IMG/VR virus record: IMGVR_UViG_3300000976_000012
Location: 1 to 64,000 of that record
Strand: one strand, 5' to 3'
Source: a virus
Length of the DNA: 64,000 nucleotides
Shown: piece by piece, positions 16,682-58,652 of the stretch
How the letters are laid out: each line of letters opens with the position of its first letter
How positions within the stretch are numbered: the stretch's first letter is position 1
Position numbers and translations under genes: made by a program
The notes under the pieces: generated by a model
Databases searched by the model: none
What the model was told of the DNA's origin: nothing
The model's input: the letters and a program-made list of their open reading frames with translations, nothing else

Positions 16682-16706
16682 CCTTCAAATGGGTGAGCCA
16701 TTGCTC

Positions 16707-17030: not shown

Positions 17031-17063
17031 AAATACTCCTGTTCGCTGGATTGCAATTTTGGG

Positions 17064-17543: not shown

Positions 17544-17616
17544 TCTCCCTGCTGATTGGGCGTAGTTGGTATGTATGGATCATTATGCCCCCTAGATCAA
17601 GTACTTCATTCACTCG

Positions 17617-17829
17617 TCACACCACGGCGTAGGTCACCCGGTTGCCTCCATGTTGAGTTCGATTGAGTACACCTTCGACTGTTAATTCTTTTAGAGCTTT
17701 CGCTACCCTCGTGCTGGCTTCGCGATGCTCGTACCCCATCGCCTTGCCTAACTCAGTCGGACTGAAGGGACCGTCCATCTTCTTGGCTTGATCCAAAACC
17801 ACCTGAACTGATTGTTTGCGTGTACCCAT
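17617..17829 (-). CDS. small winged-helix DNA-binding protein, putative
   Basis: 70 aa. FSPTELGKAMGYEHREASTRVAKALKELTVEGVLNR looks like a MarR/ArsR-type wHTH. GGAGGGA SD. Confidence 0.55.
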   Translation of the reverse strand: MGTRKQSVQVVLDQAKKMDGPFSPTELGKAMGYEHREASTRVAKALKELTVEGVLNRTQHGGNRVTYAVV

Positions 17830-17874
17830 TATCGTATCCCTCCGGTTGATCCGAGTTAGTTAAGTTCTCCTGCG

Positions 17875-17903
17875 CCATATCAGTAGCCCTCATTTTTTGT
17901 CAA
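17875..17903 (-). promoter_or_regulatory. cassette promoter (variant TTGACAAAAAAT)
   Basis: Perfect -35 but a weak -10 (ATATGG at 17 nt). Confidence 0.4.
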
Positions 17904-17908
17904 GATTA

Positions 17909-18625
17909 TCATCGATCTATGATCTTATCACGAGCCGCTGTCTCTTCAAGCGCCTTCTCTATCTCTATGTTTGCTGCACCCGGTTGCACCCGAATGATCT
18001 TAGGTTCTTGGGTCTGACGAGCTGTCAGTTGTTCCATAGCTGCCCTAATGAGCGTGAGACCCTCTTCTTCATCTACAATCTCTTCGCCGTGCCGCCACAC
18101 CTCATAATCATTCATGCGTCTATTGGCAGTGTCGCTATAAGGCATGTACTTAGCGCCGGGTCCGAACGGAAAGTCTAAGCCGTAACTGTCAGAGACTAGT
18201 AACACGAATATATCAGGCCGTTCCGGCATAACCGTGGTGTCCAGCAACGCGCTAAACTTCGAGTTAGCTGCCATCTTACCTGCGTCGATCCTGCGCACAT
18301 ACTTGGGAGCGGCGAGGTATGGACAAACCATCATCGCATATCGGGCACATTCCCTGTGGTTGGGGCCGTCAGAATAGCACCCCTGCGGGTGGAATGCAGA
18401 ACCGGGGCCTCCAACAAAGCACATCTCCCCTTGGTTTATGGGATCACCACATATAGAGCACCCACCTATCTTGACGTTCTCGAACACTTTATCGGTATCA
18501 TTGATAGTGAATAATGGCTCTCCGTCGTTATTCACTGCCACTACAACCGGGATAGGGTATCCCCGCTTGTCTACCGGCAAATGCTTCATCCGATCTGGTA
18601 TCGGTACAGCTTCGGGTTTCATCAA
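17909..18625 (-). CDS. hypothetical Cys-containing protein
   Basis: 238 aa. ATGA-type overlap with the upstream gene. A variant palindrome near the 3' end encodes VQPGA. Confidence 0.6.
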   Translation of the reverse strand: MMKPEAVPIPDRMKHLPVDKRGYPIPVVVAVNNDGEPLFTINDTDKVFENVKIGGCSICGDPINQGEMCFVGGPGSAFHPQGCYSDGPNHRECARYAMMVCPYLAAPKYVRRIDAGKMAANSKFSALLDTTVMPERPDIFVLLVSDSYGLDFPFGPGAKYMPYSDTANRRMNDYEVWRHGEEIVDEEEGLTLIRAAMEQLTARQTQEPKIIRVQPGAANIEIEKALEETAARDKIIDR

Positions 18626-19400: not shown

Positions 19401-19429
19401 ATAGTAAGATAACCCGTATTTTATGTCAA
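19401..19429 (-). promoter_or_regulatory. cassette promoter
   Basis: TTGACATAAAAT with a -10 TACTAT at 17 nt. Confidence 0.55.
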
Positions 19430-34983: not shown

Positions 34984-35012
34984 ACAATAGCGTAGCTGAC
35001 ATTTTATGTCAA
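34984..35012 (-). promoter_or_regulatory. cassette promoter
   Basis: TTGACATAAAAT with a -10 TATTGT at 17 nt. The palindrome lies 9 nt upstream. Confidence 0.6.
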
Positions 35013-37800: not shown

Positions 37801-37829
37801 ACAATAGCGCAACCCACATTTTATGTCAA
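37801..37829 (-). promoter_or_regulatory. cassette promoter
   Basis: TTGACATAAAAT with a -10 TATTGT at 17 nt. The palindrome lies 7 nt upstream. Confidence 0.6.
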
Positions 37830-43568: not shown

Positions 43569-43832
43569 CTACCGGCCCCACCTGTACTCAGTCACTTCAT
43601 CTCCAAAGCTGGTACGGTGTACCCAAAACTTCCCTTTACCGTCCGGGCGGCTCATCCGGATCAAACCAAGCCTGCGTAGATCATAACGCAATTTGCCCTT
43701 ACCAGTCTTCTTTCCCATACGTGCTCGATCTCGTGCGTCTGCATCGTGCCGAGACGGTATCTCCTGAAGGTGTGCCCACTGCGCAGCATTCAGTTCATCT
43801 GCGGTCTGTTTCACATAACTACTTACGGCCAT
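43569..43832 (-). CDS. hypothetical basic protein
   Basis: 87-aa ORF. Confidence 0.5.
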   Translation of the reverse strand: MAVSSYVKQTADELNAAQWAHLQEIPSRHDADARDRARMGKKTGKGKLRYDLRRLGLIRMSRPDGKGKFWVHRTSFGDEVTEYRWGR

Positions 43833-44341
43833 AGTGTTGGTTCCAACTCATAAGGTAAATATAGTGGGTGCTCTGGCCATCCATTAGGTGACACGCGAAT
43901 GGCATGAAACTGAGCCTCTGCCTGTTTCGCCATCTCCGTTACGTGCTCGATCCGAGCAATGATAGCGCGCTGAACTGCGGCCTTACCTTTTGGTGTTCCC
44001 CATGCGGCGATTAATATGCCATTATTCTCTTTGACGATCTTAAACGCCTGTCTTAGCGCATAATCTGCCCAACGGCACGTCAACCCCTCCGAGGTCAGGT
44101 CTTTAGCATCCGTAGCGCAGCGGGTTACCACATTGGTGAATATCATATCAGTGTAACCCCATCGCTCTGCAAAGCCCTGCCCTTTTCGGGAGGTTGCATC
44201 ATCGTCGTCTGCGTTAGCTGTGCTTGGGTTGTGTAGTACAAATACCGACGGTTTGAAACCAATCGGTTTGATCGCGACGCGACGGCGTAACCACAGTCTG
44301 TGGTCACCAGTAAATATCGCGTCCTTATTCGTATCAAACAA
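43823..44341 (-). CDS. DUF1643-like protein (from memory)
   Basis: VFVLHNPSTANADDDDATSRKGQGFAERWGY matches the family hallmark. TTG start with a GGGAGA SD. Confidence 0.55.
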   Translation of the reverse strand: MFDTNKDAIFTGDHRLWLRRRVAIKPIGFKPSVFVLHNPSTANADDDDATSRKGQGFAERWGYTDMIFTNVVTRCATDAKDLTSEGLTCRWADYALRQAFKIVKENNGILIAAWGTPKGKAAVQRAIIARIEHVTEMAKQAEAQFHAIRVSPNGWPEHPLYLPYELEPTLWP

Positions 44342-45338: not shown

Positions 45339-45367
45339 GTGCAAGTATATCTTAGATTTGTTGTCAA
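45339..45367 (-). promoter_or_regulatory. second-class promoter candidate (TTGACAACAAATC)
   Basis: The 15-nt CGTTGACAACAAATC is shared with 53998..54012. The -35 overlaps the terL stop. The -10 is poor. Confidence 0.35.
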
Positions 45368-47370
45368 CGCCTCCTACGGCTCTGAGGACGGTCGATAGAT
45401 TGCTTGCGCTCACGCTCCCTTGGCCGCACCTTCTTACGGCGTAGCGGTGACGTGCTATCTCCTTCACCTCCTCGGACAACCTGCATGTTGTTTCTGATCT
45501 CGCGAGACAGCAAGGCACCTTGTACGGCCCCGGCAAGGGCGTCAGCAATATCCTTGGTTCCACGGGGCGGGTGATCCACTTTGTTACGCTGCTGATACCA
45601 TTCAACTGTTGCTAGTTCCAGCCGCAAGCCCTCGCAATCGCCTTGGATGTCGAGACGATCCTGATAGATCATATCCCTCAAATCCTCGTATGGAACCGGG
45701 GTACGGTCCACACTAATGACTTCCGAATGGATGCCTGCCTTGCGTACTTGTTGAATTGTTTCGCTCGATGCAAAACCATCGAACGTCACTGATTTCAAGT
45801 TCACCCCGTGCTGTAAGAGAGACAGCAAGAAACCCCTTACCTCTGCAATATCTATTTCATGCACTGCATTTGGCTTGATGCCGATACCTGCCACCACGGT
45901 CAACTGTGGCACCTTCTCATATACATTGCCCTCACTACCTTCCAATTCCTTCAGTACCATACCCTCAAATCGTACAAGACAAATACCACATTTATCTCCG
46001 CTCTTGGATAAATCGGCATGAGCGAAGTGTGGTCGATCAAGCACGTTCTGCGGTGGAAACATGTCTAGCTCCCATTCTGGCATACCGTCCGTAGCAAGCT
46101 CGTATTCGTCTTGTTTGGTAAGCATAGGCACCTCCCGGTCGATCCCGCGTTGCATCGCTTTTGTGATCTTGTTTCTACGTCTGAAGAATGGCGTGATCGC
46201 ATCAGTGGCGACGCCCACTACATCTCGCAGTGCCGCGTCAGGGTCTTTCAAAAAGTCTGGTTTGTACGGCATCGGTATAGACAGAATTTCACCGTCATCT
46301 GGGAAGTGAATACCTCGCTCATCTCCCTCCTCTAGCACCCGTGTCAGATACTCATCTGTACCTACCAAAATATCAAACGTGTCGTAATTACCGTCGGAAA
46401 AACGAGGGTTCACTTCATACTGCTTATGACGGAATGACAGATGATTTGGCTCATAATCTCTGTTGGCTCTAGTCTCAACAGCGGCAATCGTATCCATCTC
46501 ATCGATCTTACGATCTAAGAAGTCCATCCGGTAACGTGTCGATGATACCGTGCAGATGTTACCAATAGACATACCACGGGTTGTGTAAGAGCGCTTCCTA
46601 CGACGTGAGATATTTGAGTAAATGATCTCAGCTTGATCGAAGTGACCGCCAAGGCCCTGCGGACCTGCTACTGTCTTTGAGTTTTCCACAATCTGCATGA
46701 AGTTGACCTCATCCAAAATCGCGCCTGCCACAGCTTGACCTAGAATTGTTTGCAAGCTCGCTGCTGCCGGGATGATGTGGACGTTGTTCGACAACTCCAG
46801 AACACTTTCCTTACGCTCATTCCACTGGCACCACTTACGAACATAAGGCATGTTCAAAAACATCGCCCGAAACGGCTCGTAGAGCACTCTCTTCGTCACT
46901 GTTGGGTTTACACTCTGAAGCATGAATACCATGGGCGTCATTGGTGTTAGTCCGAACAACTTCTGTGGCACATCAAAGCACGTAGAGAGATACACCTGAT
47001 ATGCGATACTGGCTGTGGATAAGTGAGACTTACCTGTACCTGTAGCGCCCCCTAGCAACACCTCGTGAATGGGTGTCTCCCCTGCCAGAACATCTGGGTT
47101 CATCCTGCGTAGGTCATCTCTCAACGTGTGCCAGATAGCAAAGTCCACGCCAGCCAAAAACTCTTCGCTATCCACGAACTCGTCTATGGTAACAGGAACC
47201 TTATTCATGCGCGATATAGCGTTAAAGAAATCCGGATTGTTGTGGTCGATTATTTGCTCAGCCGCATTGCGAAATATCTCGCCAGTCCGATGCATACCGG
47301 ATGCCAACGCATGCTTATACGCCCGCTCCGCTGCGACTTTCTTGTCCCTCAGAGGGTCGATACGGGTCAC
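45364..47370 (-). CDS. terL: terminase large subunit
   Basis: 668 aa. Walker A LLGGATGTGKS, Walker B AILDEVNFM, and a C-terminal RNaseH-like nuclease region (ADLSKSGDKCGICLV, VTFDGFASSE, KDIADALAGA). Confidence 0.85.
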   Translation of the reverse strand: MTRIDPLRDKKVAAERAYKHALASGMHRTGEIFRNAAEQIIDHNNPDFFNAISRMNKVPVTIDEFVDSEEFLAGVDFAIWHTLRDDLRRMNPDVLAGETPIHEVLLGGATGTGKSHLSTASIAYQVYLSTCFDVPQKLFGLTPMTPMVFMLQSVNPTVTKRVLYEPFRAMFLNMPYVRKWCQWNERKESVLELSNNVHIIPAAASLQTILGQAVAGAILDEVNFMQIVENSKTVAGPQGLGGHFDQAEIIYSNISRRRKRSYTTRGMSIGNICTVSSTRYRMDFLDRKIDEMDTIAAVETRANRDYEPNHLSFRHKQYEVNPRFSDGNYDTFDILVGTDEYLTRVLEEGDERGIHFPDDGEILSIPMPYKPDFLKDPDAALRDVVGVATDAITPFFRRRNKITKAMQRGIDREVPMLTKQDEYELATDGMPEWELDMFPPQNVLDRPHFAHADLSKSGDKCGICLVRFEGMVLKELEGSEGNVYEKVPQLTVVAGIGIKPNAVHEIDIAEVRGFLLSLLQHGVNLKSVTFDGFASSETIQQVRKAGIHSEVISVDRTPVPYEDLRDMIYQDRLDIQGDCEGLRLELATVEWYQQRNKVDHPPRGTKDIADALAGAVQGALLSREIRNNMQVVRGGEGDSTSPLRRKKVRPRERERKQSIDRPQSRRRR

Positions 47371-48125
47371 GCGACATCCTCTTCCTCTAATATGCGCTCA
47401 TCCGACCGGATCGACTTACGCGTGGTTTCCGGGTCGAAATCGCCTTGTAGGAAACTAGTAGCCAATTGCTTCAGAGCATCGGCCTCGCCTTTACCTTCTT
47501 CGTTGTACGTGATGGCAGGTCGCATAGGTGCATTATCAAAGAAGCCCCCAAGCTGCATCATTTTGGTGATTTCGCTGGTAGCTTTCATAGCAACCTCAAC
47601 ACCGCGCATCCTACGTGACCACTCCATAGCCTTGGCAGATGCAGCCTCTCTCCAACCTGCGGCCTGTGCTTCTCTATACTGTGTTACTTGCACGCCGATG
47701 CCATATGCGGGGTCAAGTCCTTTGATGTACTCTCTTTCGCGATCTCGCAACTCAGCTTTCCAGCGTTTGATCGTACTGAGACTAACGCCAAGCCTAATAG
47801 CGCATAAGTCGTTCGGCATGTTGGTGAGTACAAGCTGCTGTAGTGTATCTAAAGCAAACTCATGTGCCGCACCCCATCCGGATGTATCTTCGAGCGTCTT
47901 TATCCGGCTCACAAAGTCTGTGGCGGATGTGGTGCCGATCAAGCTATCTTCGATGAGTTCGTAAAGTGGCTCAGCAGTCACATGCTCCTGCGCAGCCATT
48001 ACCTTCTGGGTAGCCACCTTGGCCTTCTTTGGTTTGGGTGATCCTTTCGGGCGACCTACTTTCTTCTTCGCCGTTGGCTTAGAAGGTGGGTCTTCTTTCT
48101 TCTCTGATTTACGAACGAACGCCAT
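47367..48125 (-). CDS. terS: terminase small subunit, putative
   Basis: 252 aa with a basic N-terminus and HTH-like LGVSLSTIKRWKAEL. GTGA overlap into terL. Confidence 0.55.
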   Translation of the reverse strand: MAFVRKSEKKEDPPSKPTAKKKVGRPKGSPKPKKAKVATQKVMAAQEHVTAEPLYELIEDSLIGTTSATDFVSRIKTLEDTSGWGAAHEFALDTLQQLVLTNMPNDLCAIRLGVSLSTIKRWKAELRDREREYIKGLDPAYGIGVQVTQYREAQAAGWREAASAKAMEWSRRMRGVEVAMKATSEITKMMQLGGFFDNAPMRPAITYNEEGKGEADALKQLATSFLQGDFDPETTRKSIRSDERILEEEDVA

Positions 48126-48139
48126 TTGCCACCGTCCGA

Positions 48140-48745
48140 CTAACTGGCAGTGTCAGGTATCTTCGGCCCTCGGTCTTTCGGACCCCATGCGCGACTGTAC
48201 TTGTGCTCGTCAATCTTCATCTTGGTGAAGACGCTCTCCTGAAGCAATAACTCAATCTCAGCGCGGTCGGCACCAAGTTCTTTCATCAACTGTTCGATGG
48301 GAATATCATGGTCCTCTACCAATGAAGTCACAAGGTCGTGCATTCTAGCGGAAACATGAGTACCCTTGGCGCGGTTGATCCTAACGGTCAACATCTTGCG
48401 CTCAGCTTCATCAATATCCATGACAGCGCAAGGCACCTTTGTGCCAAACGCTTCTTGAATTTCCGTATCTGTCTTGGTCAATGTGCAACGGTGAAAGCCA
48501 TCGATAATCGTGTACTGATCTGGTTGATCAGGATGAGGCACCACGAGTACAGGCTGTATCCAACCCTGCTTCAGCATAGACAGCTTCAGCAACCTAAACT
48601 CAGGCCCAATAACGACGTTGGGATTATAGTCATTGGCGTTCAATTGATCGACATCAATCCACTGAATACCGTCGATAGGGTGCTTCATATCATCCGTCCT
48701 AATCTGCTGTGCAACCCGTTGCATGGGTCCACTGCTGCTGAACAC
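48140..48745 (-). CDS. ParB/IbrB-like protein
   Basis: NANDYNPNVV...GWIQPVLVV...YTIIDGFHRC matches the ParB N-domain. Candidate ATG 48724 overlaps palindrome copy 15. Confidence 0.7.
   Translation of the reverse strand: MFSSSGPMQRVAQQIRTDDMKHPIDGIQWIDVDQLNANDYNPNVVIGPEFRLLKLSMLKQGWIQPVLVVPHPDQPDQYTIIDGFHRCTLTKTDTEIQEAFGTKVPCAVMDIDEAERKMLTVRINRAKGTHVSARMHDLVTSLVEDHDIPIEQLMKELGADRAEIELLLQESVFTKMKIDEHKYSRAWGPKDRGPKIPDTAS
48710..48723. repeat. 14-bp palindromic motif copy 15
   Basis: TGCAACCCGTTGCA overlaps the candidate start ATG 48724 of the ParB-like gene (M-Q-R-V-A). Confidence 0.9.
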
Positions 48746-48814
48746 TTCTGTCCGTGTAGCTCATATTTTATGGTCAGGTCAACCTCTATGCCACACTCGC
48801 CCTGTCTTTATTGC

Positions 48815-49012
48815 CTACACAAGAGATCGACTTACACCATAATCATTCGCAACCACTCTATCTACCCTACCATCTACTTTGATAGTATCGGCTTGTTTCT
48901 GTGTTAAAATAGAATTTCCATTCTTCTCGCCTATGTTACGACGTCCCCGTTTTCCTTGATCATCCATATTGTCTTGGTGTGTTCCGGACAGAAGGTGCAT
49001 GGGATTACAACA
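48815..49012 (-). pseudogene. truncated HNH_3 homing-endonuclease remnant
   Basis: The frame reads CCNPMHLLSGTHQDNMDDQGKRGRRNIGEKNGNSILTQKQ...DYGVSRSLV. The HNH N-terminal half is missing: the frame is cut by the TGA at 49013..49015, which is also the stop of the dioxygenase gene. Confidence 0.6.
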
Positions 49013-49945
49013 TCAACCCCCGTCCCAGACATGAGGGTATCGATGATCCGCCTTTACACCTGCCTCTGGTGTCTTTGTCATATACATCCGCTGTAACCAC
49101 CGATGGTCCCCGGTAGAAAAATCAGGGGTAAATCCAACCCTCCCATGAGCAGCTTTTCTGTTATTGATCACCATACATTGACCGGGTTGCAACTCTACTT
49201 CGATGCTCCGCTGAGAGACCCAATCACGTAGCCATAAAAGCGCCTCTTTCGCACGTTCTTCAGTTGCGTACATCTCAGCTAAATCAACCCGGAATAGGGG
49301 ATCACCTTGATTGTACTCTATGATTGGTTTCCAGAACGTCTTATCGTGTCCAAAGCTCTCTCCGATGCGAATGCCAAACTTAGGCTGCGTCAACATAAAG
49401 CACACACCATCAGGTGCCTCGCTTATCACGTCCTCCAACAGTACGTAGCTGGTACGACCCTTCTCATGGTTCTTCAACGGTATCAGCGCGATGGTATCAG
49501 GTGGTGTTTCATGGTGTGGTGCTTCTATATGAAAATCAAACAGGTCCGATCCCCTGTTGGAGTTAGACGCTTCACAACCGGGAACCGGACTAATCTGATG
49601 TATCAACTCCCCGTCTTTCTCATTGTGAAAAGCAACCGGACACTGATCTAGTATGGCAGCTACTGCGTTCAGAACAGCCTCACTTATATTAGCGGGCTTG
49701 GTAACCCTTTTGCCATCCATTGGAGACGCGGGCAAGCATGTGTCCACAGGCAAATCGGTAAGAATAGCTACACCTTTGGAAACACACTCAACAAAGCCGT
49801 GCGGATCATCGAGACCTACCCACAGCAAATCAGCTAATTCCTCACTGCGTCGCCCACCGGGGCGATAAGGGTCCGACGCTCTGGCCACATCTAATAACTG
49901 GTCTCGATACGCGCCGTTCCAACTGAAATAAATACTACTCGCCAT
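49013..49945 (-). CDS. Fe(II)/2-oxoglutarate dioxygenase, clavaminate-synthase/TauD-like
   Basis: 310 aa from ATG 49945. HxE triad candidate FDFHIEAPHH and distal NRKAAHGRVGF. Confidence 0.6.
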   Translation of the reverse strand: MASSIYFSWNGAYRDQLLDVARASDPYRPGGRRSEELADLLWVGLDDPHGFVECVSKGVAILTDLPVDTCLPASPMDGKRVTKPANISEAVLNAVAAILDQCPVAFHNEKDGELIHQISPVPGCEASNSNRGSDLFDFHIEAPHHETPPDTIALIPLKNHEKGRTSYVLLEDVISEAPDGVCFMLTQPKFGIRIGESFGHDKTFWKPIIEYNQGDPLFRVDLAEMYATEERAKEALLWLRDWVSQRSIEVELQPGQCMVINNRKAAHGRVGFTPDFSTGDHRWLQRMYMTKTPEAGVKADHRYPHVWDGG

Positions 49946-51182
49946 GCGTCGCCTCAGCTGCGTCTGCTTCAGCTTCACGCTCATACCGAATCATGTCGTG
50001 GTCTGGGTTGCTGTGCACTTGGATGCCTTTGAGATAATCGCCCTTCACAATTTTCTTGAACACATGCAGAATTGGGTAACCGTAACAGTATCCCGGATCG
50101 GCATACTTGCCTTTGCGCATATTGTTCTGCTTCCCTTTATATGTGGTCTCCACAATCTTCTTCGCCCTCGCCACGTTGGCAGGTTCTTCAATGGTGTCAT
50201 CAATATACGCCATGATCCCTTCAAAGCTCTTGGGGTATCGATTAATGATGCCGTAGCGATCAAAGTCCTTCCAATAACGCTCGTGCGTAGCAACGCCGGG
50301 AAACACGGCACATAGCTGCTCAAAAAACTTGGGATACATCTGACGTAACCGTGACAGGTACGCGTAAGCCTGATCATGGAGAGGCGTGCTTACTCGCAAA
50401 TGACTATTGGCTGTGCCGGACAGCATCTGGCGATCATATATCTTGCAATACTTGATCTCACGCTCCCAAAAGAACCTGAAAATATCTTCCGTGCTCCAAT
50501 CATAAATAGGTTTGATGAAGCTGGTGTCTTTTGCGCCCCCTGCATCTCCAGCGATGTAGTTATACGCGTTCTTGGTGAGGTTACATGACCGGAACCGTAG
50601 CAAACTTTCTTGTGCTCGAATGCCGTTGAACATCCCGATCTTACCTGTCCATCCGAGCCGGATATTGATCAATGCCTGCATTTCCGTTTGGATCATGGGC
50701 TTCCCTTCCGGGTGCACATCGGTGATGGCGAAGTCTGGCTTCTGTCTTACCCAGTTATCCCGGCGCTCTTCATCCCACTGGATGTAACTGTGGTGTTTGC
50801 CGAGCAAAAAGAATTGGTTGATCATAGGCACCGCAAAGAAGTGTAGCGTCCACTTATCCGGCTCATCACGTAACTCAGTCACCTTATCGATGACCTCTCC
50901 CGGTATAAGCTCTTCGTCTCTGAATACGACATCCAGCGGGAAGTTCCAGCCCATCTCATCCATCACCTCACGCACAAGGTAAAGTACAACATGACTATCT
51001 TTGCCTCCAGAATAAGAGACAGCGCACCTGTCATAGCTTAGTAGACAATGGCGAATGCGCTTCTTAGCTTCAGTCAGCACGTCGCTATCTACGTAGTGAA
51101 CGCGGGTGTCTGAAAAAATGTGTGGCCGATCCTGCGGTGGTATTTCGCGCTCGGTCTCTGTGCTAAGTGGTTGCCCCATCAT
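49935..51182 (-). CDS. PP-loop ATPase of the PAPS-reductase / DndC / IbrA family
   Basis: PP-loop VSYSGGKDSHVV and GIRAQESLLR, plus a long C-terminal domain (PIYDWSTEDIFRFF...) as in IbrA-type proteins. Confidence 0.8.
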   Translation of the reverse strand: MMGQPLSTETEREIPPQDRPHIFSDTRVHYVDSDVLTEAKKRIRHCLLSYDRCAVSYSGGKDSHVVLYLVREVMDEMGWNFPLDVVFRDEELIPGEVIDKVTELRDEPDKWTLHFFAVPMINQFFLLGKHHSYIQWDEERRDNWVRQKPDFAITDVHPEGKPMIQTEMQALINIRLGWTGKIGMFNGIRAQESLLRFRSCNLTKNAYNYIAGDAGGAKDTSFIKPIYDWSTEDIFRFFWEREIKYCKIYDRQMLSGTANSHLRVSTPLHDQAYAYLSRLRQMYPKFFEQLCAVFPGVATHERYWKDFDRYGIINRYPKSFEGIMAYIDDTIEEPANVARAKKIVETTYKGKQNNMRKGKYADPGYCYGYPILHVFKKIVKGDYLKGIQVHSNPDHDMIRYEREAEADAAEATHGE

Positions 51183-51876
51183 TAATCTCCCTGCTGACCG
51201 TGCCACCGTCTTCTATGAACTTGGCGATGCGTGCGCTTATCGACGGTTCCGTTGGGTATTTGCCTCTTAGCACCCCTAATAACTCGACAAATCGTGTGTA
51301 ATTAGTGTCGTTTGAAAACTGTAAATTGGTTCGATGGATCGTGGGAACGAAACCCGTCCACGCTGCCTTGTTCTGACCATGCGCGTCAAATCCCACTTCC
51401 GACGCCTCCCCGGTTGGTGTAGCATTATCGCCGTTGACGATGCCGGTGGAACCACCTGCTCGTGGCAAAAATAAAGCATCCTCCTCACTAAAGCCAAGAG
51501 ACGTGTAATCGTCTCGCCCTACTCCAATGCGGTCAAACTCGTCAGATACAGCCGACAAGTCCATCGGTGTCATTTGCTGAATTTGATTGTGGGCAATGCC
51601 GTAACCCCTGCGCTTTGCCTCATCCAATTGAAGCACGATGACAGGCACCGTCTCTATGTTTAATTCTTCCGCTGCGGAAAGCCTACCATGGCCCTCCACG
51701 ATCATGAATGCACCGTCTTCATCTGGGTGATCCACAACGCCAAGCGGGTCCAAAAACCCGAACCGCGTGATGGACGCCTTAATCTGTGCGAGGTTCACTT
51801 CGTTATGGCGTTTCACGTTATCAGGGTCAGGCAAGACAGTAGATGTAGCGACGTGCTGAATATCAAGCTGCTTCAT
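51163..51876 (-). CDS. ParB-like N-domain protein (tandem copy 2)
   Basis: Start ATG 51876 with a GAGGAGG SD. LPDPDNVKRHNE...FGFLDPLGV...MIVEGHGRLSAAEELNIETVPV. Confidence 0.75.
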   Translation of the reverse strand: MKQLDIQHVATSTVLPDPDNVKRHNEVNLAQIKASITRFGFLDPLGVVDHPDEDGAFMIVEGHGRLSAAEELNIETVPVIVLQLDEAKRRGYGIAHNQIQQMTPMDLSAVSDEFDRIGVGRDDYTSLGFSEEDALFLPRAGGSTGIVNGDNATPTGEASEVGFDAHGQNKAAWTGFVPTIHRTNLQFSNDTNYTRFVELLGVLRGKYPTEPSISARIAKFIEDGGTVSREINDGATT

Positions 51877-52564
51877 GTTCGACCTCCTCATCCGCGATGC
51901 CTGCTTGATGATCGAGGGAAATCGTACCGGGCACCATCAAACAAAGCTGTTCCCATATCTCAGGGTGGTCTCGTTGGATCATTGCCATAAACACTTCGCC
52001 GCTGCCCATCGCTTTGTCCGCTCCGCGTTCATCTTCGTCGGCTAAGAACTGCTTGAACAATTCCTTTTGCTCTTTGTCTTCCCAGATGACCTCGTAACTC
52101 AGCGCACCGCTATCCGCAGCGCGACTTTCACCCTCTTCTTCTGGATCAGCTTCACCGAAATTCTGGAAAAGATTACCTACGATTGCGTCATTGAAACCCA
52201 TGTCTTCATAAGAAATCCCATCCTCTCCCACCACGTCTTGCAAAGCGGAAAACAGGGCAGCAAAATCAAACTGACTAGTCAATGCAATTTTGTTGTGTGC
52301 GATGCGATAGAGATCGTACTGATCTTCAGTCAGGCCCTCTATAACCATAACTGGTACAGCTTCTATCCCTAAGTTCTGCGCTGCTTGATGACGCCCGTGG
52401 CCTTCAATGATAACCATACCCGTAGTAACAGCAATTGGATCGTTAAACCCGAAACGCTCGATGGAGCGCATTATAGCACTCACATCTTCATCATTGTGGT
52501 GCTTCGAGTTGGTGTCATACGGCAAGAGATCGCCTGTATTTTTCCGTTCTAATCGTAGTTTCAT
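51863..52564 (-). CDS. ParB-like N-domain protein (tandem copy 1)
   Basis: LLPYDTNSKHHND...FGFNDPIAV...VIIEGHGRHQAAQNLGIEAVPV. Confidence 0.75.
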   Translation of the reverse strand: MKLRLERKNTGDLLPYDTNSKHHNDEDVSAIMRSIERFGFNDPIAVTTGMVIIEGHGRHQAAQNLGIEAVPVMVIEGLTEDQYDLYRIAHNKIALTSQFDFAALFSALQDVVGEDGISYEDMGFNDAIVGNLFQNFGEADPEEEGESRAADSGALSYEVIWEDKEQKELFKQFLADEDERGADKAMGSGEVFMAMIQRDHPEIWEQLCLMVPGTISLDHQAGIADEEVEHEAA

Positions 52565-52628
52565 GGTCTGCTGCTTCCTATGCTGCTGACTTACTGTTCG
52601 CTACTTACTATCTCGAAGACCTTTTCAT

Positions 52629-52642
52629 TGCAACCCGTTGCA
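52629..52642. repeat. 14-bp palindromic motif copy 16
   Basis: Lies in the leader of the ParB operon, 15 nt downstream of TGACATAAAAT and 65 nt upstream of ATG 52564. Confidence 0.9.
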
Positions 52643-52669
52643 CCTGCAAAAGCGTATATTTTATGTCAC
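52641..52669 (-). promoter_or_regulatory. cassette promoter variant (GTGACATAAAAT)
   Basis: The -35-like GTGACA overlaps the stop of 52666..53265. There is no good -10 at 17 nt. The palindrome sits downstream, not upstream. Confidence 0.4.
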
Positions 52670-53265
52670 GCTCTCTTGCGCTTTGGTGGGTTAATGAATC
52701 GAGAAGGTAGGATGCCCTTTGGCTTACTGACTTCAGGAAAGCCCCAAAAGAAACGGATAGGGTCTCGTAGATCACGCGACAGAAATAAGTCTCGGCTGAT
52801 GCCTGCTTCTGTAGCGAACGCTTCCCAAAACTCTCCATCTTTAGGCAACCCTACCGGATAAACCTCATCATATGATCGATACATTTTGACAGGCGACATC
52901 ACCAACATAGTCCACCAAGCACCGTGTTTGTAATTCCGTGCCACAAAGTCAAACCACGAACGCGGGTCCACAAAACGGGCATGAAGCAAGCGATGTGCTA
53001 GTTTGGACACGGGCAACCATTCTGTAGACTTTTCAATGGAATAGTCTTCTAGATGGGTGAACATATAACCAGCACCCTTCGGATCGTCAGGTCGAGTGTA
53101 CCCCGTAATGGAGCACACTGTTGGGTTGTTACCTCGCTGGTAGCGCTCCACTCGTTGGGGTTGGTTCACCCCATTTCGCGCTTGGGGACTGAAGCCGTTG
53201 TACCAGCGGTCCTTACTCACCTTACGCCCTGCGGCGATGTAATCGTTAAGCCCCTGCATCTTCAT
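52666..53265 (-). CDS. hypothetical protein, C-terminal INPPKRKRA
   Basis: 199 aa. Start overlaps the methyltransferase stop. No recognised domain. Confidence 0.6.
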   Translation of the reverse strand: MKMQGLNDYIAAGRKVSKDRWYNGFSPQARNGVNQPQRVERYQRGNNPTVCSITGYTRPDDPKGAGYMFTHLEDYSIEKSTEWLPVSKLAHRLLHARFVDPRSWFDFVARNYKHGAWWTMLVMSPVKMYRSYDEVYPVGLPKDGEFWEAFATEAGISRDLFLSRDLRDPIRFFWGFPEVSKPKGILPSRFINPPKRKRA

Positions 53266-53948
53266 TATGCGCGCTCCAAAATGACAGCGGCGTCTTCAGA
53301 CTTCTTGGAGCGGAACGTCTCTTTCCAGAGCGGGCCGATAGCTTCGATCTCAATGTCTGTGTTATAAATCGGGTGTGCCAGCCGGTTCCTATACGGTCCG
53401 TAGAGACGGCCTTCGAGCACTATGTACTCAATACCTGCATCGGCGGCGGCTTTGCCAAAAGCATGTCCAGCAGGTAGCCAAATATCGCGACCTGTCTCCA
53501 TGTGAACAGCGGCTTTGCCAAACGTAGTGGCAAAAAGCTCGGACAAAACACGACGACAAAGGAACGTATTGATCCCTTGGCTTACCCAGTCACGACACAT
53601 AACCGCAAATTCTTCGGTACGTACATCGAGCTTAGCTGTTTGGAGAGTAACCCCATCTGTGCGGACAAATTGGTTATAGGCGTCCACCGCCTTCTGGTTC
53701 ATTTCCAACCCAATGACAGGCCCCCACCCCATTTTCCGGGCACGGATCGATAACATCCCGTGACATGCGCCGAAATCGATAGCACCTCCGCGCTTGTCTT
53801 TAGGTACTTGCTCCATGGCAATACCCATTTGCTTATGGATGTTGGGGAGTTTTCCTTCATCCAGATATTTTTGGATGTGTTTGAAATGTCCGTAGATTGC
53901 GCCACCGTCTAATTTAGTGGGGTTCGGGTTTGTGTTTGCAGTTGTCAT
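53265..53948 (-). CDS. class I SAM-dependent methyltransferase
   Basis: Motif I AIDFGACHG and an acidic beta-2 end VIGLEMN. No DPPY/NPPY or C5 PC/ENV motifs, so the substrate is unclear. Confidence 0.65.
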   Translation of the reverse strand: MTTANTNPNPTKLDGGAIYGHFKHIQKYLDEGKLPNIHKQMGIAMEQVPKDKRGGAIDFGACHGMLSIRARKMGWGPVIGLEMNQKAVDAYNQFVRTDGVTLQTAKLDVRTEEFAVMCRDWVSQGINTFLCRRVLSELFATTFGKAAVHMETGRDIWLPAGHAFGKAAADAGIEYIVLEGRLYGPYRNRLAHPIYNTDIEIEAIGPLWKETFRSKKSEDAAVILERA

Positions 53949-53981
53949 GAAAGTCCTTTCAGCCCTGAATTTCTATGAATT

Positions 53982-54010
53982 ATAATACCGTACCTCTGAT
54001 TTGTTGTCAA
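53982..54010 (-). promoter_or_regulatory. sigma70-like promoter (TTGACAACAAATC class)
   Basis: TTGACA-17-TATTAT, 34 nt upstream of ATG 53948. Confidence 0.6.
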
Positions 54011-54019
54011 CGATCTAGA

Positions 54020-54514
54020 CTACGTTTCCGCGTACAATTCTCGGTCATTCGCTGTCTTTACTGTGTGGCAGGGTGGGCATCGAGTTGCCATGTTTTTCAG
54101 TGTCCATAGCTCATGCGGGTTACCTTGTTTTGGAGCCTCGGATAACGGGATAATGTGATCTAATTCCCACCGCCCTAAAGCTAACGGCTTCAACCCCGGT
54201 TTGCCATAATCAACCGGGTTCAATATCTCTTCTATAATGCGACGAACTTGATCACTAGATTGACCACCCGGTGAACAATCCATACCACAATCAGCGCAGA
54301 TACCCCGATCCCTTACGAATACAAATCGACGGGCAACCTGCGGATTATTCATAATAGACCATTTAAGAGAGCACTCTGAATGCCAGAACGCTCCCTTATT
54401 GATCTTACCTTGCCGGTCGATGATACGATCACCACAAAACTTGCAGTGACCACGCTTTGGCTTGAGCATAAAGCGTGGCCGAGGCGGTATTCGGTGTCGC
54501 CCCTTCCTACGCAT
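54020..54514 (-). CDS. HNH endonuclease
   Basis: Start set at ATG 54514 (TAATG overlap with the nrdJ stop). CKFCG...HSEC...ELDHIIPLSE...CPPCHTVKT. Confidence 0.75.
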   Translation of the reverse strand: MRRKGRHRIPPRPRFMLKPKRGHCKFCGDRIIDRQGKINKGAFWHSECSLKWSIMNNPQVARRFVFVRDRGICADCGMDCSPGGQSSDQVRRIIEEILNPVDYGKPGLKPLALGRWELDHIIPLSEAPKQGNPHELWTLKNMATRCPPCHTVKTANDRELYAET

Positions 54515-57063
54515 TACTTCTCCTCGTTGAACTCCACGGGGCAAGCACCGCCGTCGCAATCAATATGGACTTTGTTGATGTCCTCGCTGATGTCACCTGA
54601 TTTTGAGATGGCTCGTGCAATACCCTCAAACTCCGCTTTAGATACTGATTGCTCAGGGAGATATTCGTATGCCCCCATATCGTCAACCTGCGGCATGACA
54701 CTCACACAGCGCACCTCTGGTTGGTGATGTGCGATAGTCCGGGCAAACTCTTCGTAGGGCGTATCACTCGGCTTGTACTTGAGTGTGTAACTGATCTGGT
54801 TGCCATACGGCTCTAGCGTTTTCATGTCCGCTTGGAAACTGGCCGGATCGTGGCCTTCCAGCCAAAACGCCTCACCTAGTTTTAGCCATAAGAATTGCTG
54901 GTCCATGCTGGCCTCGCCAGCGGTTACGATGTGCTCTTCAATACCTTCAAGTTCGGTGATTGTTGGTATAGTTGGGAAGCCAACAATGGTGTGGCCTTTG
55001 TACTCTTTCAATTCACGTACCGGATAACCGAGTTCGCGATAAGTATCCACCAATGAGTCACCGTTGCGATACTGAACCCACCTCATGTAACGCTTCATTG
55101 CGGGCAAGTGCCAGCCTTCAGTCAATCCAAACAACTTAGACACTGATCCAGATGGTTTAATGGTCGTGACCGTGTGTGGAGGCTCTACGCCAAGCTCATC
55201 TGCGTAATGACGGCTCTCTAAATAGGACGCCCGTGACAGCTTGCCGAGACAGTTCCAAAACGCTGCGGCCCGGACGCAGGGATTATCGTGATTTGCACCG
55301 GGGCAATAGCTGTCATCCTTGCCTTGATACTCTTCTATCCATACCTCAAAGTCAGGATGGATAAGGTGATTAAAACCGATGTTGAAAAACTTCCACGCAA
55401 ACTCATGCACACCAGTCAATCCTACGCCAATGCGGTTCGTTCTGGCTACCTCTGCGTTATACAGGCTGTCCATGAGATTGACCCGTATCAAAGCGCGTGT
55501 CGTGGATCGTATGGCATCCTCTGCCTGCTCCAGCGTATCTGCGTGGAACGGAACGACGTCCGCAATGACGCAAAAACCTCCTAGAACAAACAGGGCGATC
55601 TCGCCGCATGGATTTGTGATATATCCATTTGGTTTCTTGCGAACGGCTTTCGCGAGCCTCTGAAGATATATGCGTGTCTCGTCTTTGGTGGTGTACCGCT
55701 TCGACCGCACGTAGTCACCGGAACGGTACGCCCCTTCATCTGTGCCAGCACGATTGTCATGCAGCATGTCGCTGTTGATCAGTCCCGGCTCACCTGTGCC
55801 GTCTCCATAAGAGCACTCAGATACGCGTTTCAGGACGGCACGTGCCTTGACGCTAAGCGGTGATTGATAATCAGCGTGATCCTCGGTGAGCTTGGCGCGA
55901 CGCCAAAACTCTTTGTCCACTGTCACACTGTTGTTGGATGACCATAAGAAAGCCATGGGCGGGAAGTCGAGGTCAGCAGTGTACGCCTGCACCTCGTCCA
56001 TTGTCATGCCTTCAAATTCGATTGGACGTTTGATCTCAATGAAGTCGAGAATGTCTGGATCACTCCAGTGCTTTGTGCTCATCCGAGCGGCGCGACGCGC
56101 TCCACCCACAAGCACAGGCTCCGCTAGAAAATGATCGATGTATAGCGCTTGCATCCATGGCTTGAGGCCAGCACCCTTGATCTTGGCGATCTTCTCTATG
56201 GTATTCATTAGAGGGACCGGGCCGGATGATGGGCGTCCTTGCATTCCTATGATTGGTGCACCTTCCGGGCGGACATCGCTGAAGTCGATAATCAACATGT
56301 CGTCTTTGTAGGCTTTCTGGAAAGCCATGACTTCCATAAGCTCGATAGCCTCTGCCCACCCCTCACGACTGTCAGGCACCTTAAACCAATGCACACTATC
56401 ACCCTTACCGTATAGGTGTTGCGCATCTCGTACAGCGGTGTGTTGGCCAAACTTAAAATCGGCATGGCCTTCAGCGAGCACCACGCGGACAGTCGGCATG
56501 TGATCCCAATTGATCAATACCATATCATCATCGTAGCACCTACCTACCCCGGCACCATTCAGCAACAAATAGAACAGTGCAAAGCTAGACGCCGATGTGG
56601 CGCAGTTACAGAATACTTCCATAGGTCGTTTGGTCTGATGGGTGTCGCCTTGCTGAAGGTGCCGCCCAGACATCAACGTCCTACCTGTAGCGATATGTCC
56701 TTGCAGCGCAGCCAACTCAGCGTCTGTATGCTCAATAGACCAATCTTGGTCTGTCAGTGACAAGAGACTAACATTGCCTGTTGCAACGCGTTGCGCAACC
56801 TCTCCCCATTCTTCCCACCGCGTAGGAGGCTCTTGACCACGCATAGGTGCGTTTTCATCCATCGTGACATCGAACCCACCTGTGTTGTGTAGTGCCACAA
56901 GCCACGGTCGCATATCTGGATCATTCGGATTAATCTTAATATCTGCGTCAAGCAAACTCATTGCTTCGTCTGTCAGCACCTTCCGCAGGTATGTTCGTTC
57001 AGCTACGGCTTTACCCATTCCGGGGTGAAGTGGGCGATAAGGTACAACGGCATTGGACTGCAT
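54514..57063 (-). CDS. nrdJ: ribonucleotide reductase, class II (B12-dependent) type
   Basis: 849 aa with the active-site ITNPCGEI and a C-terminal Cys pair CDGGACP. No NrdB partner or ATP-cone is seen in the window. Confidence 0.8.
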   Translation of the reverse strand: MQSNAVVPYRPLHPGMGKAVAERTYLRKVLTDEAMSLLDADIKINPNDPDMRPWLVALHNTGGFDVTMDENAPMRGQEPPTRWEEWGEVAQRVATGNVSLLSLTDQDWSIEHTDAELAALQGHIATGRTLMSGRHLQQGDTHQTKRPMEVFCNCATSASSFALFYLLLNGAGVGRCYDDDMVLINWDHMPTVRVVLAEGHADFKFGQHTAVRDAQHLYGKGDSVHWFKVPDSREGWAEAIELMEVMAFQKAYKDDMLIIDFSDVRPEGAPIIGMQGRPSSGPVPLMNTIEKIAKIKGAGLKPWMQALYIDHFLAEPVLVGGARRAARMSTKHWSDPDILDFIEIKRPIEFEGMTMDEVQAYTADLDFPPMAFLWSSNNSVTVDKEFWRRAKLTEDHADYQSPLSVKARAVLKRVSECSYGDGTGEPGLINSDMLHDNRAGTDEGAYRSGDYVRSKRYTTKDETRIYLQRLAKAVRKKPNGYITNPCGEIALFVLGGFCVIADVVPFHADTLEQAEDAIRSTTRALIRVNLMDSLYNAEVARTNRIGVGLTGVHEFAWKFFNIGFNHLIHPDFEVWIEEYQGKDDSYCPGANHDNPCVRAAAFWNCLGKLSRASYLESRHYADELGVEPPHTVTTIKPSGSVSKLFGLTEGWHLPAMKRYMRWVQYRNGDSLVDTYRELGYPVRELKEYKGHTIVGFPTIPTITELEGIEEHIVTAGEASMDQQFLWLKLGEAFWLEGHDPASFQADMKTLEPYGNQISYTLKYKPSDTPYEEFARTIAHHQPEVRCVSVMPQVDDMGAYEYLPEQSVSKAEFEGIARAISKSGDISEDINKVHIDCDGGACPVEFNEEK

Positions 57064-57149: not shown

Positions 57150-57213
57150 CCATACAGAAAGGCCCGATGCCATTACAGCACCGAGCCACCCTGACAAGGA
57201 TTGCAGGATTTTA

Positions 57214-58575
57214 TCAGGCGGCCTTTTCTTCCGCCTCCTCTTCGCTGGCTTCTTCTGTCTCGCCAACCGGGGTAGTAGTGATCTTCACACCAAAACGTGC
57301 TTCTGCCAGTTCCACGGTCTGTTCGAGTGTCATGTCAGAGCCATCCGAGTGACCACGCCAATCGTTCACAATATATGCAAACGCCTTGCCCATATCTTCC
57401 TCGCCGATTGCCGCCATGGCTTCCGTGATACCTTCATTGACGCCAATAGCATCTTCTTCCGCTACACTGAAGCTGAACTTAGTCATCTTCACGGTGTCAC
57501 CACCGCGAGTTGCGACTTCGTAGTTCTTCTTGATGTGCTCAGTAAGTTCATCGCGAGTAGTAGTCTTTGCCATTTCCAGCAAAGCGTCCTTGTCGCGCTT
57601 GAGATCGTCGATGGCGATCCGAGCAATTTCCTTAGCTTTCGACCAACCGATGTCAGCCAGTTCCGTTTCGCCGATATTGGCCAGCGAACACGCACGATAG
57701 ACTGAGATCAGATAGCGCGCCTTGCGATATTCCAGATCGAGCTCACCATCGATATAGTCTTTGAAAGCGTTCTTGCCGTCATAGCCCATCTGCTTATGGA
57801 TGCCGGTCTGGTCAACGTGGTCCAAAACACCACCAAGGGTGAAGTAAGTTCGCTCAACCTGCTCAATCAAATGACGGGCAGCGTCCGTGGCATTGTCCGC
57901 ATCGGACAGTGCTTTGGTGACTGATGCCATCGGAGCAATCTGCTCTGGCTCGGACTTCTTGACTTCCGTCTTTTTGTTCTTCGCTTCCGCTTTTGGTTTT
58001 TCTTCTTCAACAGGGGCCGACCTGGCAGCTTCGATAGCTTCAATGCGGTCTTTCTTGGTGACTGCATTCGAGATGTCCGCACCTTCGTCTTTGGCAATGG
58101 CCGCAATTTCCTTGACGGTCATCCGTTCATTCAGGGCGGGGAGGTCTTCAGAGGCGCTCTCGCTATCCCTGACCGCTTCACTGTCACCTGCTTCACTGTC
58201 ACCTGCTTCAGCTTCGCTGGAGTTATCTTCAGCTTCTTCGATGTCGTCACCGCCTTCAGCATCACCTGTTTCCAGTTCGGCTGCTTCGATTTCTGAGAGG
58301 AATACCCGCTCAGCATGTGACGGTTCACCACTGTCTTTATCCAGCAATTCGTTACCGTCTTCATCAACGCCTACAACTACAATGTCGCCTTCGCCTTCAT
58401 CGAAACGAATGATCTTCACAGGCATGTCTTTTTCGAGGATTTCTTCCTCTCCTTCGACTGCGGATGAGTATCCGTTAAACAAGGCGAACGCACCAGTTGT
58501 GATGCCTACTGCCTTAGCTTGAGCTTTGAGGCTCTGCTTGTCTTCGTCTGCCATTTTCTTCATCTCCTGTGGCAT
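57214..58575 (-). CDS. acidic HeH/SAP-motif protein
   Basis: 453 aa with a very acidic centre, HeH-like MTVKEIAAIAKDEGADIS, and a C-terminal helical domain with weak ParB-HTH flavour. Confidence 0.55.
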   Translation of the reverse strand: MPQEMKKMADEDKQSLKAQAKAVGITTGAFALFNGYSSAVEGEEEILEKDMPVKIIRFDEGEGDIVVVGVDEDGNELLDKDSGEPSHAERVFLSEIEAAELETGDAEGGDDIEEAEDNSSEAEAGDSEAGDSEAVRDSESASEDLPALNERMTVKEIAAIAKDEGADISNAVTKKDRIEAIEAARSAPVEEEKPKAEAKNKKTEVKKSEPEQIAPMASVTKALSDADNATDAARHLIEQVERTYFTLGGVLDHVDQTGIHKQMGYDGKNAFKDYIDGELDLEYRKARYLISVYRACSLANIGETELADIGWSKAKEIARIAIDDLKRDKDALLEMAKTTTRDELTEHIKKNYEVATRGGDTVKMTKFSFSVAEEDAIGVNEGITEAMAAIGEEDMGKAFAYIVNDWRGHSDGSDMTLEQTVELAEARFGVKITTTPVGETEEASEEEAEEKAA

Positions 58576-58623: not shown

Positions 58624-58652
58624 ACAATACGGCGCGACAGATTTTATGTCAA
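58624..58652 (-). promoter_or_regulatory. cassette promoter
   Basis: TTGACATAAAAT with a -10 TATTGT at 17 nt. The palindrome lies 8 nt upstream. 38 bp are identical to 38566..38603. Confidence 0.6.

Follow-up and report, generated by a model that had tools for sequence, protein, structure and literature searches.

The gene island at positions 48140 to 53948 of the viral record IMGVR_UViG_3300000976_000012, analysed here within a 64-kb stretch of that record (positions 1 to 64,000; hereafter the window), belongs with described systems in which a ParB-fold protein is paired with a PP-loop enzyme of the 3′-phosphoadenosine-5′-phosphosulfate (PAPS) reductase fold. The closest of these is the IbrA/IbrB pair (Escherichia coli YbdN/YbdM type; phrog_2302/phrog_2159), in which the PP-loop enzyme is accompanied by an IbrB-like ParB protein. 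The window encodes the same pair, with an IbrB-like protein 35% identical to annotated phage IbrB, and differs in that the C-terminal half of its IbrA-like protein goes undetected as DUF3440 by Pfam and in that its lineage adds an AsnO-like Fe(II)/2-oxoglutarate (2OG) dioxygenase. Whereas DUF3440-type IbrA is accompanied by an SNF2 helicase, the subfamily in the window instead has a methyltransferase (MTase) of its own and, upstream, one further ParB paralog or two.

The DndB/DndC, SspD and BrxP systems likewise combine a ParB-fold protein with a PP-loop ATP pyrophosphatase of the PAPS-reductase fold that is presumed to act on DNA. DndC is characterised by three cysteines that ligate a 4Fe-4S cluster and by a cysteine dyad for sulfur transfer (PMC10853773). 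Neither feature is present in the IbrA-like protein, whose matches to the models of these families score far under their cutoffs, and the island lacks a sulfur donor as well as partners of the DndD/DndE or SspB/SspC kind.

A third point of comparison is provided by phage ParB-fold proteins, which have CTP or ATP as their ligand and frequently occur as fusions with DNA methyltransferases (survey, PMC12704722). Two ParB paralogs of the island, ParB233 and ParB242, most resemble the N-terminal ParB domain of such fusions (phrog_498; PADLOC MTase_II). Unlike in the fusions, the partners in the window are encoded separately, and the nearby MTase is without DNA-MTase motifs. The resemblance nevertheless suggests, by analogy, a shared logic in which ParB delivers a DNA-modifying enzyme.

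Cultured phages of Arthrobacter, Mycobacterium, Bacillus and Rhizobium have a core of ParB, IbrA-like and IbrB-like genes, often with an MTase of the same family, and in most cases this core adjoins the terminase genes or a genome end. The order is ParB, IbrA, ParB, methyltransferase, terS, terL in Arthrobacter phage Laroye; ParB ... IbrA, ParB, terL in mycobacteriophages Obutu and Pipefish; and ParB, IbrA, methyltransferase ... ParB at the right genome end in Bacillus phage PBC5. These clusters share with the window the IbrA subfamily (36–45% identity), the flanking ParB and IbrB genes and the adjacency to the terminase or genome end, and the MTases of Laroye and PBC5 are of the same family as the window's enzyme, MT227. 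They differ in having a single upstream ParB gene adjoining IbrA (Laroye has a second, larger one further upstream) and in lacking both the dioxygenase and a 199-residue protein found here. The ParB-IbrA-IbrB(-MTase) core is an already annotated phage module; its coupling to an AsnO-like dioxygenase and a Cys/His-rich protein is new. An earlier, sequence-only reading of the window knew of no described system in which such ParB/PAPS-reductase-fold pairs are combined with an oxygenase and an MTase of these types next to the packaging genes, which holds for the dioxygenase addition but not for the ParB/PAPS-reductase-like/ParB (+MTase) arrangement beside the terminase, annotated in many cultured phages.

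A conserved operon upstream of the terminase genes

The island and the terminase genes that follow it are made up as below (aa, amino acids; nt, nucleotides; ORF, open reading frame).

53265..53948, minus strand: methyltransferase MT227 (phrog_11826 'methyltransferase', E 1e-17; weak PrmA/PRMT similarity)
52666..53265, minus strand: Cys/His-rich 199-aa ORF, without a family match and paired tightly with MT227
51863..52564, minus strand: ParB233, upstream paralog 1 (ParB_N, E 7e-5; phrog_620, E 3e-39)
51163..51891, minus strand: ParB242, upstream paralog 2 (ParB_N, E 3e-7; phrog_620, E 4e-29)
49935..51206 (alternative start 51182), minus strand: IbrA-like PP-loop protein with the motif SGGKDS (PF01507, E 1.6e-11; phrog_2302, E 6e-101)
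49013..49945, minus strand: AsnO-like Fe(II)/2OG dioxygenase (PF02668, E 1e-12; AsnO, 2og5, E 3e-29)
48815..49000, minus strand: HNH-endonuclease fragment of 61 aa (phrog_59, E 6e-5)
48140..48745, minus strand: IbrB-like ParB protein (IbrB201) with a ParB N-domain and a helix-turn-helix (HTH)-like region (phrog_2159, E 1e-62)
47367..48125, minus strand: putative terS, assigned by position only, starting 14 nt past the end of the IbrB gene
45364..47370, minus strand: terL (44% identical to terL as annotated in Rhizobium phages RHph_I4 and L338C; phrog_9, E 1e-4; Walker A motif GATGTGKS)

The sequence-only reading had named a SAM (S-adenosylmethionine) MTase without DNA-MTase catalytic motifs, tandem ParB N-domain paralogs, a PP-loop protein of the PAPS-reductase family with SGGKDS, a dioxygenase with HxE...H, an HNH remnant and an IbrB-like ParB protein. 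All of these ORFs are present, on the minus strand and in the positions it gave, with the folds and motifs it described, and the profile and structure searches upheld its fold assignments. Its terS-terL call is borne out for terL; the putative terS found no family match in Pfam and PHROG profile searches. A comparison of terL with solved structures returned no match.

The island is a conserved operon and not a chance cluster. Contigs of relatives were found by exact-protein look-ups of homologs of the dioxygenase, the 199-aa protein and the MTase. Four divergent metagenomic phage contigs, L003 (104 kb), L005, L012 and L013, carry the MTase, 199-aa, ParB, ParB, IbrA, dioxygenase, IbrB, terS and terL genes, at 30–76% amino-acid identity to the window's proteins, and the MTase family recurs in other IbrA modules, as expected if, as had been proposed, the genes form one unit. 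Gene content is kept in all four and order is kept from ParB through terL; the MTase/199-aa pair is swapped in L003, and L005 and L012 have extra small genes between this pair and ParB. The dioxygenase occupies the slot between IbrA and IbrB in each contig, and terS homologs are kept upstream of terL. In the L013 contig, the terL homolog (15028-18030) is 1000 aa long and includes a Hom_end_hint domain of the intein/homing endonuclease type, which makes this an intein-interrupted terminase.

Starts and stops overlap within the window for ParB233/ParB242 (29 nt), ParB242/IbrA, IbrA/dioxygenase (11 nt) and MT227/199-aa. The IbrA stop overlaps the dioxygenase start in five of five genomes, by 4 nt in the four relatives, and the two genes are translationally coupled. 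None of the related loci examined contains a counterpart of the 61-aa HNH fragment, and the gap between dioxygenase and IbrB is 267 nt here versus approximately 60–95 nt in relatives. The fragment looks like the leftover of an insertion in this genome alone and probably lies outside the system.

Among cultured phages, IbrA-like homologs were found in 220 of 50,697 records. The closest cultured relatives of the window are Rhizobium phages RHph_I4 and L338C, which share the ribonucleotide reductase (RNR), HNH, 199-aa-like, ParB, ParB, IbrA and IbrB genes at 31–54% identity. They are without the dioxygenase and MT227, and their terminase lies ~42 kb from the island. The gene EVC24_111 of RHph_I4 was considered as an MT227 homolog and rejected on a negative comparison. 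Of the 16 loci with IbrA that were examined, 15 also have an adjacent IbrB homolog (32–74% identical), the exception being Microbacterium phage Rasputia (L016). At the nucleotide level, megablast of the island against the 50,697 phage records gave no match, and a scan of genome contigs with the IbrA alignment returned only two close matches, in Nocardia and Kribbella, from which no host could be inferred.

A sister subfamily in which DUF3440 is detectable by Pfam occurs in Streptococcus thermophilus phages, Flavobacterium phage FCL-2, Pseudomonas phage Amjad_SA and Rasputia. In the first three of these, an SNF2/DEAD helicase joins IbrA and IbrB. In Rasputia, the right genome end (92039-97096 of MT639646.1) instead has genes for three glycosyltransferases, an acetyltransferase and a methyltransferase in a row, with an IbrA-like gene closing the series, a candidate further modification island built around IbrA.

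Predicted chemistry of the encoded proteins

The best solved relative of the dioxygenase is AsnO, an L-asparagine beta-hydroxylase. Its iron triad (H139, E141, H267, in the arrangement H139-x-E141...H267) and its 2OG-binding arginine, R282, are invariant among homologs and align to AsnO H155, E157, H287 and R301, where AsnO literature numbering is the chain number minus 24. Residues E109, N130, D221 and R286, conserved in the phage clade, align to AsnO E125, N146, D241 and R305. In the AsnO structure paper, E125, N146 and R305 are reportedly among the residues that hold the free amino-acid substrate. D221 varies in more distant relatives, as expected of a specificity determinant: AsnO D241 sets the preference for Asn over Asp, and D241N switches the enzyme from Asn to Asp (PMC9968057). 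Taken together, these residues identify the protein as a clavaminate-synthase-like amino-acid beta-hydroxylase of AsnO type, in a small phage clade and with a predicted activity.

The phage clade shares with the AsnO, VioC and clavaminate-synthase-like hydroxylases the 2-His-1-carboxylate triad, the 2OG arginine and the substrate-holding residues, including the aspartate that specifies Asn. It differs from them by a clade-specific segment of ~55 residues at the N terminus, by the conserved tail ADxRYPHVW at the C terminus and by its setting, a phage operon rather than a non-ribosomal peptide synthetase cluster; it was found only in these phage contigs. Within a library of 1.84 billion proteins, the clade consists of the top six to eight representatives only, above a plateau of AsnO-like enzymes. 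A tblastn search of the 50,697 phage records found no homolog, and dioxygenase pattern scans of viral contigs (run twice) and of metagenome contigs found nothing. A DNA-base dioxygenase of the TET/JBP type was also considered and rejected, as no such domain is present and only TauD/CAS-type families match.

In the IbrA-like protein, SGGKDS is invariant across nine homologs and the PF01507 match is above cutoff. PF11922 (DUF3440) finds no match in this protein even at E 10, yet profile-profile alignment to the DUF3440-containing phage IbrA (hhalign, 332 columns, E 2.7e-38) spans the C-terminal half, and the two subfamilies are homologous over their full length. The only sequence match to a solved structure, a weak one, is FAD synthase. 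The alignment holds a single invariant cysteine, in a YCxxY motif that FAD synthase also has.

The earlier analogy with DndC fails at this point. The 4Fe-4S cysteine triad and the cysteine dyad that define DndC were not found in the alignment, the DndC model TIGR03183 scores 15.5 bits against a cutoff of 290.4, and the PADLOC DndC and BrxP models match the PP-loop only (residues 42-126). In PAPS/adenosine-5′-phosphosulfate (APS) reductases of the CysH type, an ECGLH-type motif is the C-terminal catalytic cysteine site; a conserved C-terminal cysteine of this type was also not found in the alignment. Because the Fe-S triad, the dyad and the CysH-type cysteine are all absent, sulfur chemistry is unlikely, and the protein is better read as a putative ATP pyrophosphatase or adenylyltransferase. 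Phage copies of IbrA are commonly reported in the literature as 'PAPS reductase' sulfur auxiliary metabolic genes (AMGs); judged by its residues, the IbrA-like protein of the window is neither a sulfur-assimilation gene product nor a phosphorothioation enzyme.

The three ParB proteins are assigned to the ParB-CTPase fold, with nucleotide binding predicted. ParB_N matches score 30.8 bits for ParB242, 23.2 for ParB233 and 22.2 for IbrB201 against a Pfam gathering cutoff of 26.3, which only ParB242 passes, and the assignment of the other two is carried by their strong PHROG matches. All three keep the Box II arginine (EGHGR, EGHGR and DGFHR). ParB233 and ParB242 are paralogs, 33–37% identical by cross-matches. 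ParB233 is closest to the ParB domain of the phage ParB-MTase fusions (phrog_498, E 2e-33; PADLOC MTase_II, E 1e-22), to which ParB242 is also related (phrog_498, E 6e-25). The best solved relatives of ParB242 are chromosomal ParB and Spo0J, with significant matches; ParB233 matches the same proteins weakly (best E 0.02). IbrB aligns with Noc into the HTH region. A kinase reading of these proteins, after the ParB-fold serine kinase SerK, was downgraded, since the SerK match is marginal (E 0.4) and proteins of the ParB, Spo0J and Noc type match far better (E 6e-7).

The AlphaFold2 (AF2) model of MT227 (predicted local distance difference test, pLDDT, 81) has a class I SAM MTase fold. Foldseek aligned it to 388 solved chains at E<=1e-3, essentially all SAM MTases among the matches listed, with BCDIN3D (an RNA 5′-phosphate methyltransferase), PrmA, NNMT and natural-product MTases nearest and no DNA MTase in the top 50 structural matches. 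Motif IV of DNA MTases, (D/N/S)PP(Y/F/W), or PC in C5 enzymes, was not found in MT227 or in its 10 homologs. The phage-specific family to which MT227 belongs conserves motif I (DFGACHG) and motif II (GLE), and RRVxxE and LEGR are invariant in it; the last two would fit an anionic substrate. Homologs occur in L003, L005, L012 and L013, and the family shows full-length homology to the MTases of PBC5 and Laroye (hhalign probability 99.3 and 99.0, E 4.5e-20 and 5e-18, respectively), from which we conclude that this MTase is dedicated to the module and has moved with it between hosts belonging to different phyla.

The 199-aa protein has 27 homologs, among them proteins of the Rhizobium phages, L003, L005, L012 and L013, in which C51, H71, E73, Y75, H91, H95 and R97 are invariant; distant members carry CxxC...H.E...CxxCHxxxH. 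The earlier label of 'unknown' stands insofar as Pfam scans of all 27 members gave no match. It may give way, however, to a His-Me-finger nuclease, because the AF2 model (pLDDT 85) shows a beta(69-71)-beta(84-86)-alpha(88-95) element bearing the invariant H71, H91 and H95. Foldseek returned recurring HNH/EndoVII matches that were weak and non-significant, and a profile-profile comparison with the neighbouring HNH gene product, HNH179, gave no match. A further homolog, 60% identical over the core, lies at 10001-10489 of L011 (a JGI 3300070316 contig), directly after the gene of a 620-aa integrase with overlapping start and stop. This apparently bacterial contig has no nearby IbrA, so the family is not restricted to IbrA modules.

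Transcription and neighbouring genes

Immediately upstream of the island lie the following features.

53982..54010, minus strand: predicted sigma70-type promoter TTGACA-17-TATTAT, a consensus match only
54020-54559: HNH179, an HNH endonuclease gene (phrog_11604)
54514-57063: class II RNR gene

The promoter-like sequence, in the 71-nt gap between HNH179 and MT227, matches the consensus at 11 of 12 positions, the best such match in the window, and is the predicted start of the island transcript. Comparable TTGACA-17 sites precede the island in L013 and in L001 and L002, the two Rhizobium phages. No convincing terminator was found between the island and terS/terL. The island had earlier been described as transcriptionally fused to the terminase genes, an observation that now carries little weight, because all ORFs of at least 120 aa not nested in a longer minus-strand ORF lie on the minus strand throughout the 64 kb and the Rhizobium phages keep island and terminase apart. 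A search for parS- or pac-like repeats (47000-54200) revealed nothing beyond the ParB paralogy.

In the window as a whole, six minus-strand sites combine an exact TTGACA, a 17–18-nt spacer and a TATTGT-like -10 element (58624-58652, 53982-54010, 37801-37829, 34984-35012, 19401-19429 and 16620-16649). At least four of them lie in gaps just upstream of ORFs, and their position on the coding strand suggests that the phage uses host sigma70 promoters scattered along a single-strand gene array.

HNH179 overlaps the 3′ end of the RNR gene by 46 nt, and the RNR-HNH pairing also occurs in the Rhizobium phages, L003, L012 and L013. Beyond the RNR and its overlapping HNH gene lie RuvC, exonuclease, RecA and helicase genes. 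With replication-type genes upstream and the terminase downstream, the island sits at the boundary of the replication and packaging modules.

Several other features of the window were recorded. A highly acidic, Glu/Ala-rich protein of 453 aa with a weak endonuclease VII-like segment is encoded at 57214-58575 (phrog_17202); after its gene, just upstream of the RNR gene, lies the region's strongest terminator-like hairpin (57161-57187). A DUF1643 protein (PF07799, E 2e-21) is encoded at 43823-44341, two genes downstream of terL, with the same placement in L003 and L012. GC skew is negative in 31 of 32 2-kb intervals and 0.000 in the remaining one, and no tRNA genes were found across the window.

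Proposed function and competing explanations

Gene content, folds, catalytic motifs, conservation of the operon and co-inheritance of its parts are the observations that an account of the island has to accommodate. The sequence-only reading had proposed a phage DNA (or nucleotide) modification or anti-restriction pathway, possibly coupled to packaging. DNA modification stays the most plausible interpretation, tentatively and at somewhat less than an even chance: phage DNA would receive a non-sulfur modification, guided by ParB proteins, activated by ATP and tailored both by methylation and by a hydroxylated amino acid. That DNA is the target, that the chemistry is an adenylation, that an amino acid is linked and that the result is protective are all inferred here.

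In such a pathway, the two ParB paralogs of ParB-MTase type and the Noc-like IbrB would bind or load on phage DNA and recruit the IbrA-like enzyme. IbrA would then spend ATP on adenylating a group of the DNA, which could be a base carbonyl or else a phosphate of the backbone or of an end, and a non-sulfur nucleophile would displace the adenylated group. The MT227-family MTase may modify the adduct or its precursor. In this lineage only, the AsnO-like hydroxylase would supply or tailor an asparagine-type amino acid, free or tethered, while nicking of the DNA or access to it may come from the 199-aa His/Cys protein. With its own promoter heading the packaging operon, the system could mark DNA during replication and packaging and so shield it from restriction-type host defences.

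A DNA-directed role is supported by the resemblance of the ParB domains to those of DNA-MTase fusions, by the extension of the IbrB alignment into the Noc HTH and by the helicases of the sister subfamily. The co-inheritance of the genes, the invariant PP-loop in a protein without the Fe-S and persulfide cysteines, the AsnO-type residues of the dioxygenase and the promoter-like sequence heading the island likewise favour the proposed pathway. We also count as support the case of a Vibrio podophage, in which a PAPS-domain::Dam fusion gene and an adjacent gene of unknown function, transferred together, allow the recipient to escape host Dnd (bioRxiv 10.1101/2021.05.05.442762; cited in PMC13551039).

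Several points weigh against this interpretation. Neither a modified base nor a modified linkage has been reported from the cultured phages with the core module. Most IbrA phages are without the dioxygenase, so the core chemistry must be able to proceed in its absence. Among characterised enzymes, the nearest relatives have small-molecule substrates (free Asn for AsnO; phosphate/sulfate for FAD synthase and CysD; likewise the generic MTases), and the modelled 199-aa protein is possibly a degenerate His-Me-finger (HNH/EndoVII-like) nuclease, a weak assignment. In a literature search on IbrA/IbrB, DUF3440 and PAPS reductase with ParB, no paper was found that gives a biochemical function to IbrA/IbrB or to the E. 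coli K-12 paralogs YbdN/YbdM. In the original E. coli work, IbrAB is said to activate eib genes, and the sole direct data on true IbrAB concern such prophage gene activation.

A more specific proposal, which we consider unlikely as it stands, is a previously undescribed, covalent, non-sulfur DNA modification. IbrA would adenylate a phosphate of the DNA, in the backbone or at an end, or a base carbonyl; an (hydroxy)asparagine-type amino acid would become attached and the adduct methylated, giving a hypermodification derived from an amino acid, or a phosphate cap, made by an enzyme of the PAPS-reductase fold.

Also doubtful is a role in late-gene or packaging control, in which IbrB and the ParBs would bind phage sites with IbrA as an ATP-dependent partner, switching on late transcription or marking concatemers for the terminase, and the MTase and dioxygenase would be accessory. 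Late activators occupy the slot upstream of the terminase in many phages. The module lies immediately upstream of terS/terL in the window, L003, L005, L012, L013 and Laroye, directly before terL, with no annotated terS, in Obutu, and beside the portal gene in FCL-2, and the eib activation reported for IbrAB is of a regulatory kind. The ~42 kb that separate island and terL in the Rhizobium phages nevertheless speak against it, as does the position of the module between lysis and early genes in S. thermophilus phages, and a regulator would leave unexplained three conserved, translationally coupled enzymes with intact catalytic motifs.

Distinctly improbable, in our view, is a small-molecule or nucleotide pathway that makes or breaks down a soluble compound, such as a hydroxylated, methylated and nucleotide-activated amino acid, for use as an anti-defence factor, signal mimic or precursor, with the ParB folds as NTP-binding or kinase-like subunits. 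The dioxygenase keeps all the residues with which AsnO binds its free amino acid, the solved-structure match of IbrA is a phosphate adenylyltransferase (FAD synthase), and the structural neighbours of MT227 are MTases of small molecules, proteins and RNA phosphates. The ParB fold, moreover, includes the free-serine kinase SerK and sulfiredoxin (PMC12704722), though SerK matches are weak here. The ParB proteins are in fact far nearer to the DNA-binding ParB, Spo0J and Noc than to SerK, and both the Noc HTH alignment of IbrB and the helicase partners of the sister IbrA subfamily point to DNA.

Phosphorothioation of phage DNA in the manner of Dnd or Ssp, or mimicry of the host phosphorothioate mark, with a host cysteine desulfurase as the sulfur source, is very improbable. 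The pairing of a ParB with a PAPS-reductase fold parallels DndB/DndC, the PP-loop finds weak matches in the DndC and BrxP models, and the PAPS-domain::Dam fusion of the Vibrio phage, with its adjacent gene, did allow escape from Dnd. The only invariant cysteine of the IbrA-like protein, however, belongs to the YC motif common to FAD synthase, with neither triad nor dyad, the DndC score stands at 15.5 bits against 290, and the island holds no homologs of DndA, DndD, DndE or SspB/SspC.

A chance neighbourhood of unrelated accessory genes, including a cysH-like sulfur AMG, for which the habitual annotation of phage PAPS reductases and the mobile-element traffic betrayed by the HNH fragment might be cited, is barely credible and is contradicted by the conservation of content, and of order from ParB through terL, across genomes 30–76% identical, by co-inheritance of the MTase across host phyla, by the overlap of adjacent genes and by the absence of the CysH C-terminal catalytic cysteine.

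Hundreds of phages carry IbrA/IbrB-type pairs, as do prophages and E. coli K-12 (ybdNM). To their study the island contributes a subfamily without the cysteines of sulfur chemistry, an MTase that travels across host phyla and, in one lineage, an amino-acid hydroxylase with readable substrate residues. If phage DNA is the substrate, the chemistry of the system would be of a class new to phage DNA, and its way of countering restriction would be new as well; an amino-acid-derived hypermodification or cap would reveal the chemistry of the whole IbrA/IbrB (YbdN/YbdM) family; and a late-gene or packaging switch would constitute a new enzymatic type of regulator. The amino acid, the mass of the adduct and the cultured phages offer handles for finding the chemistry, and the function of IbrA/IbrB is now experimentally approachable.

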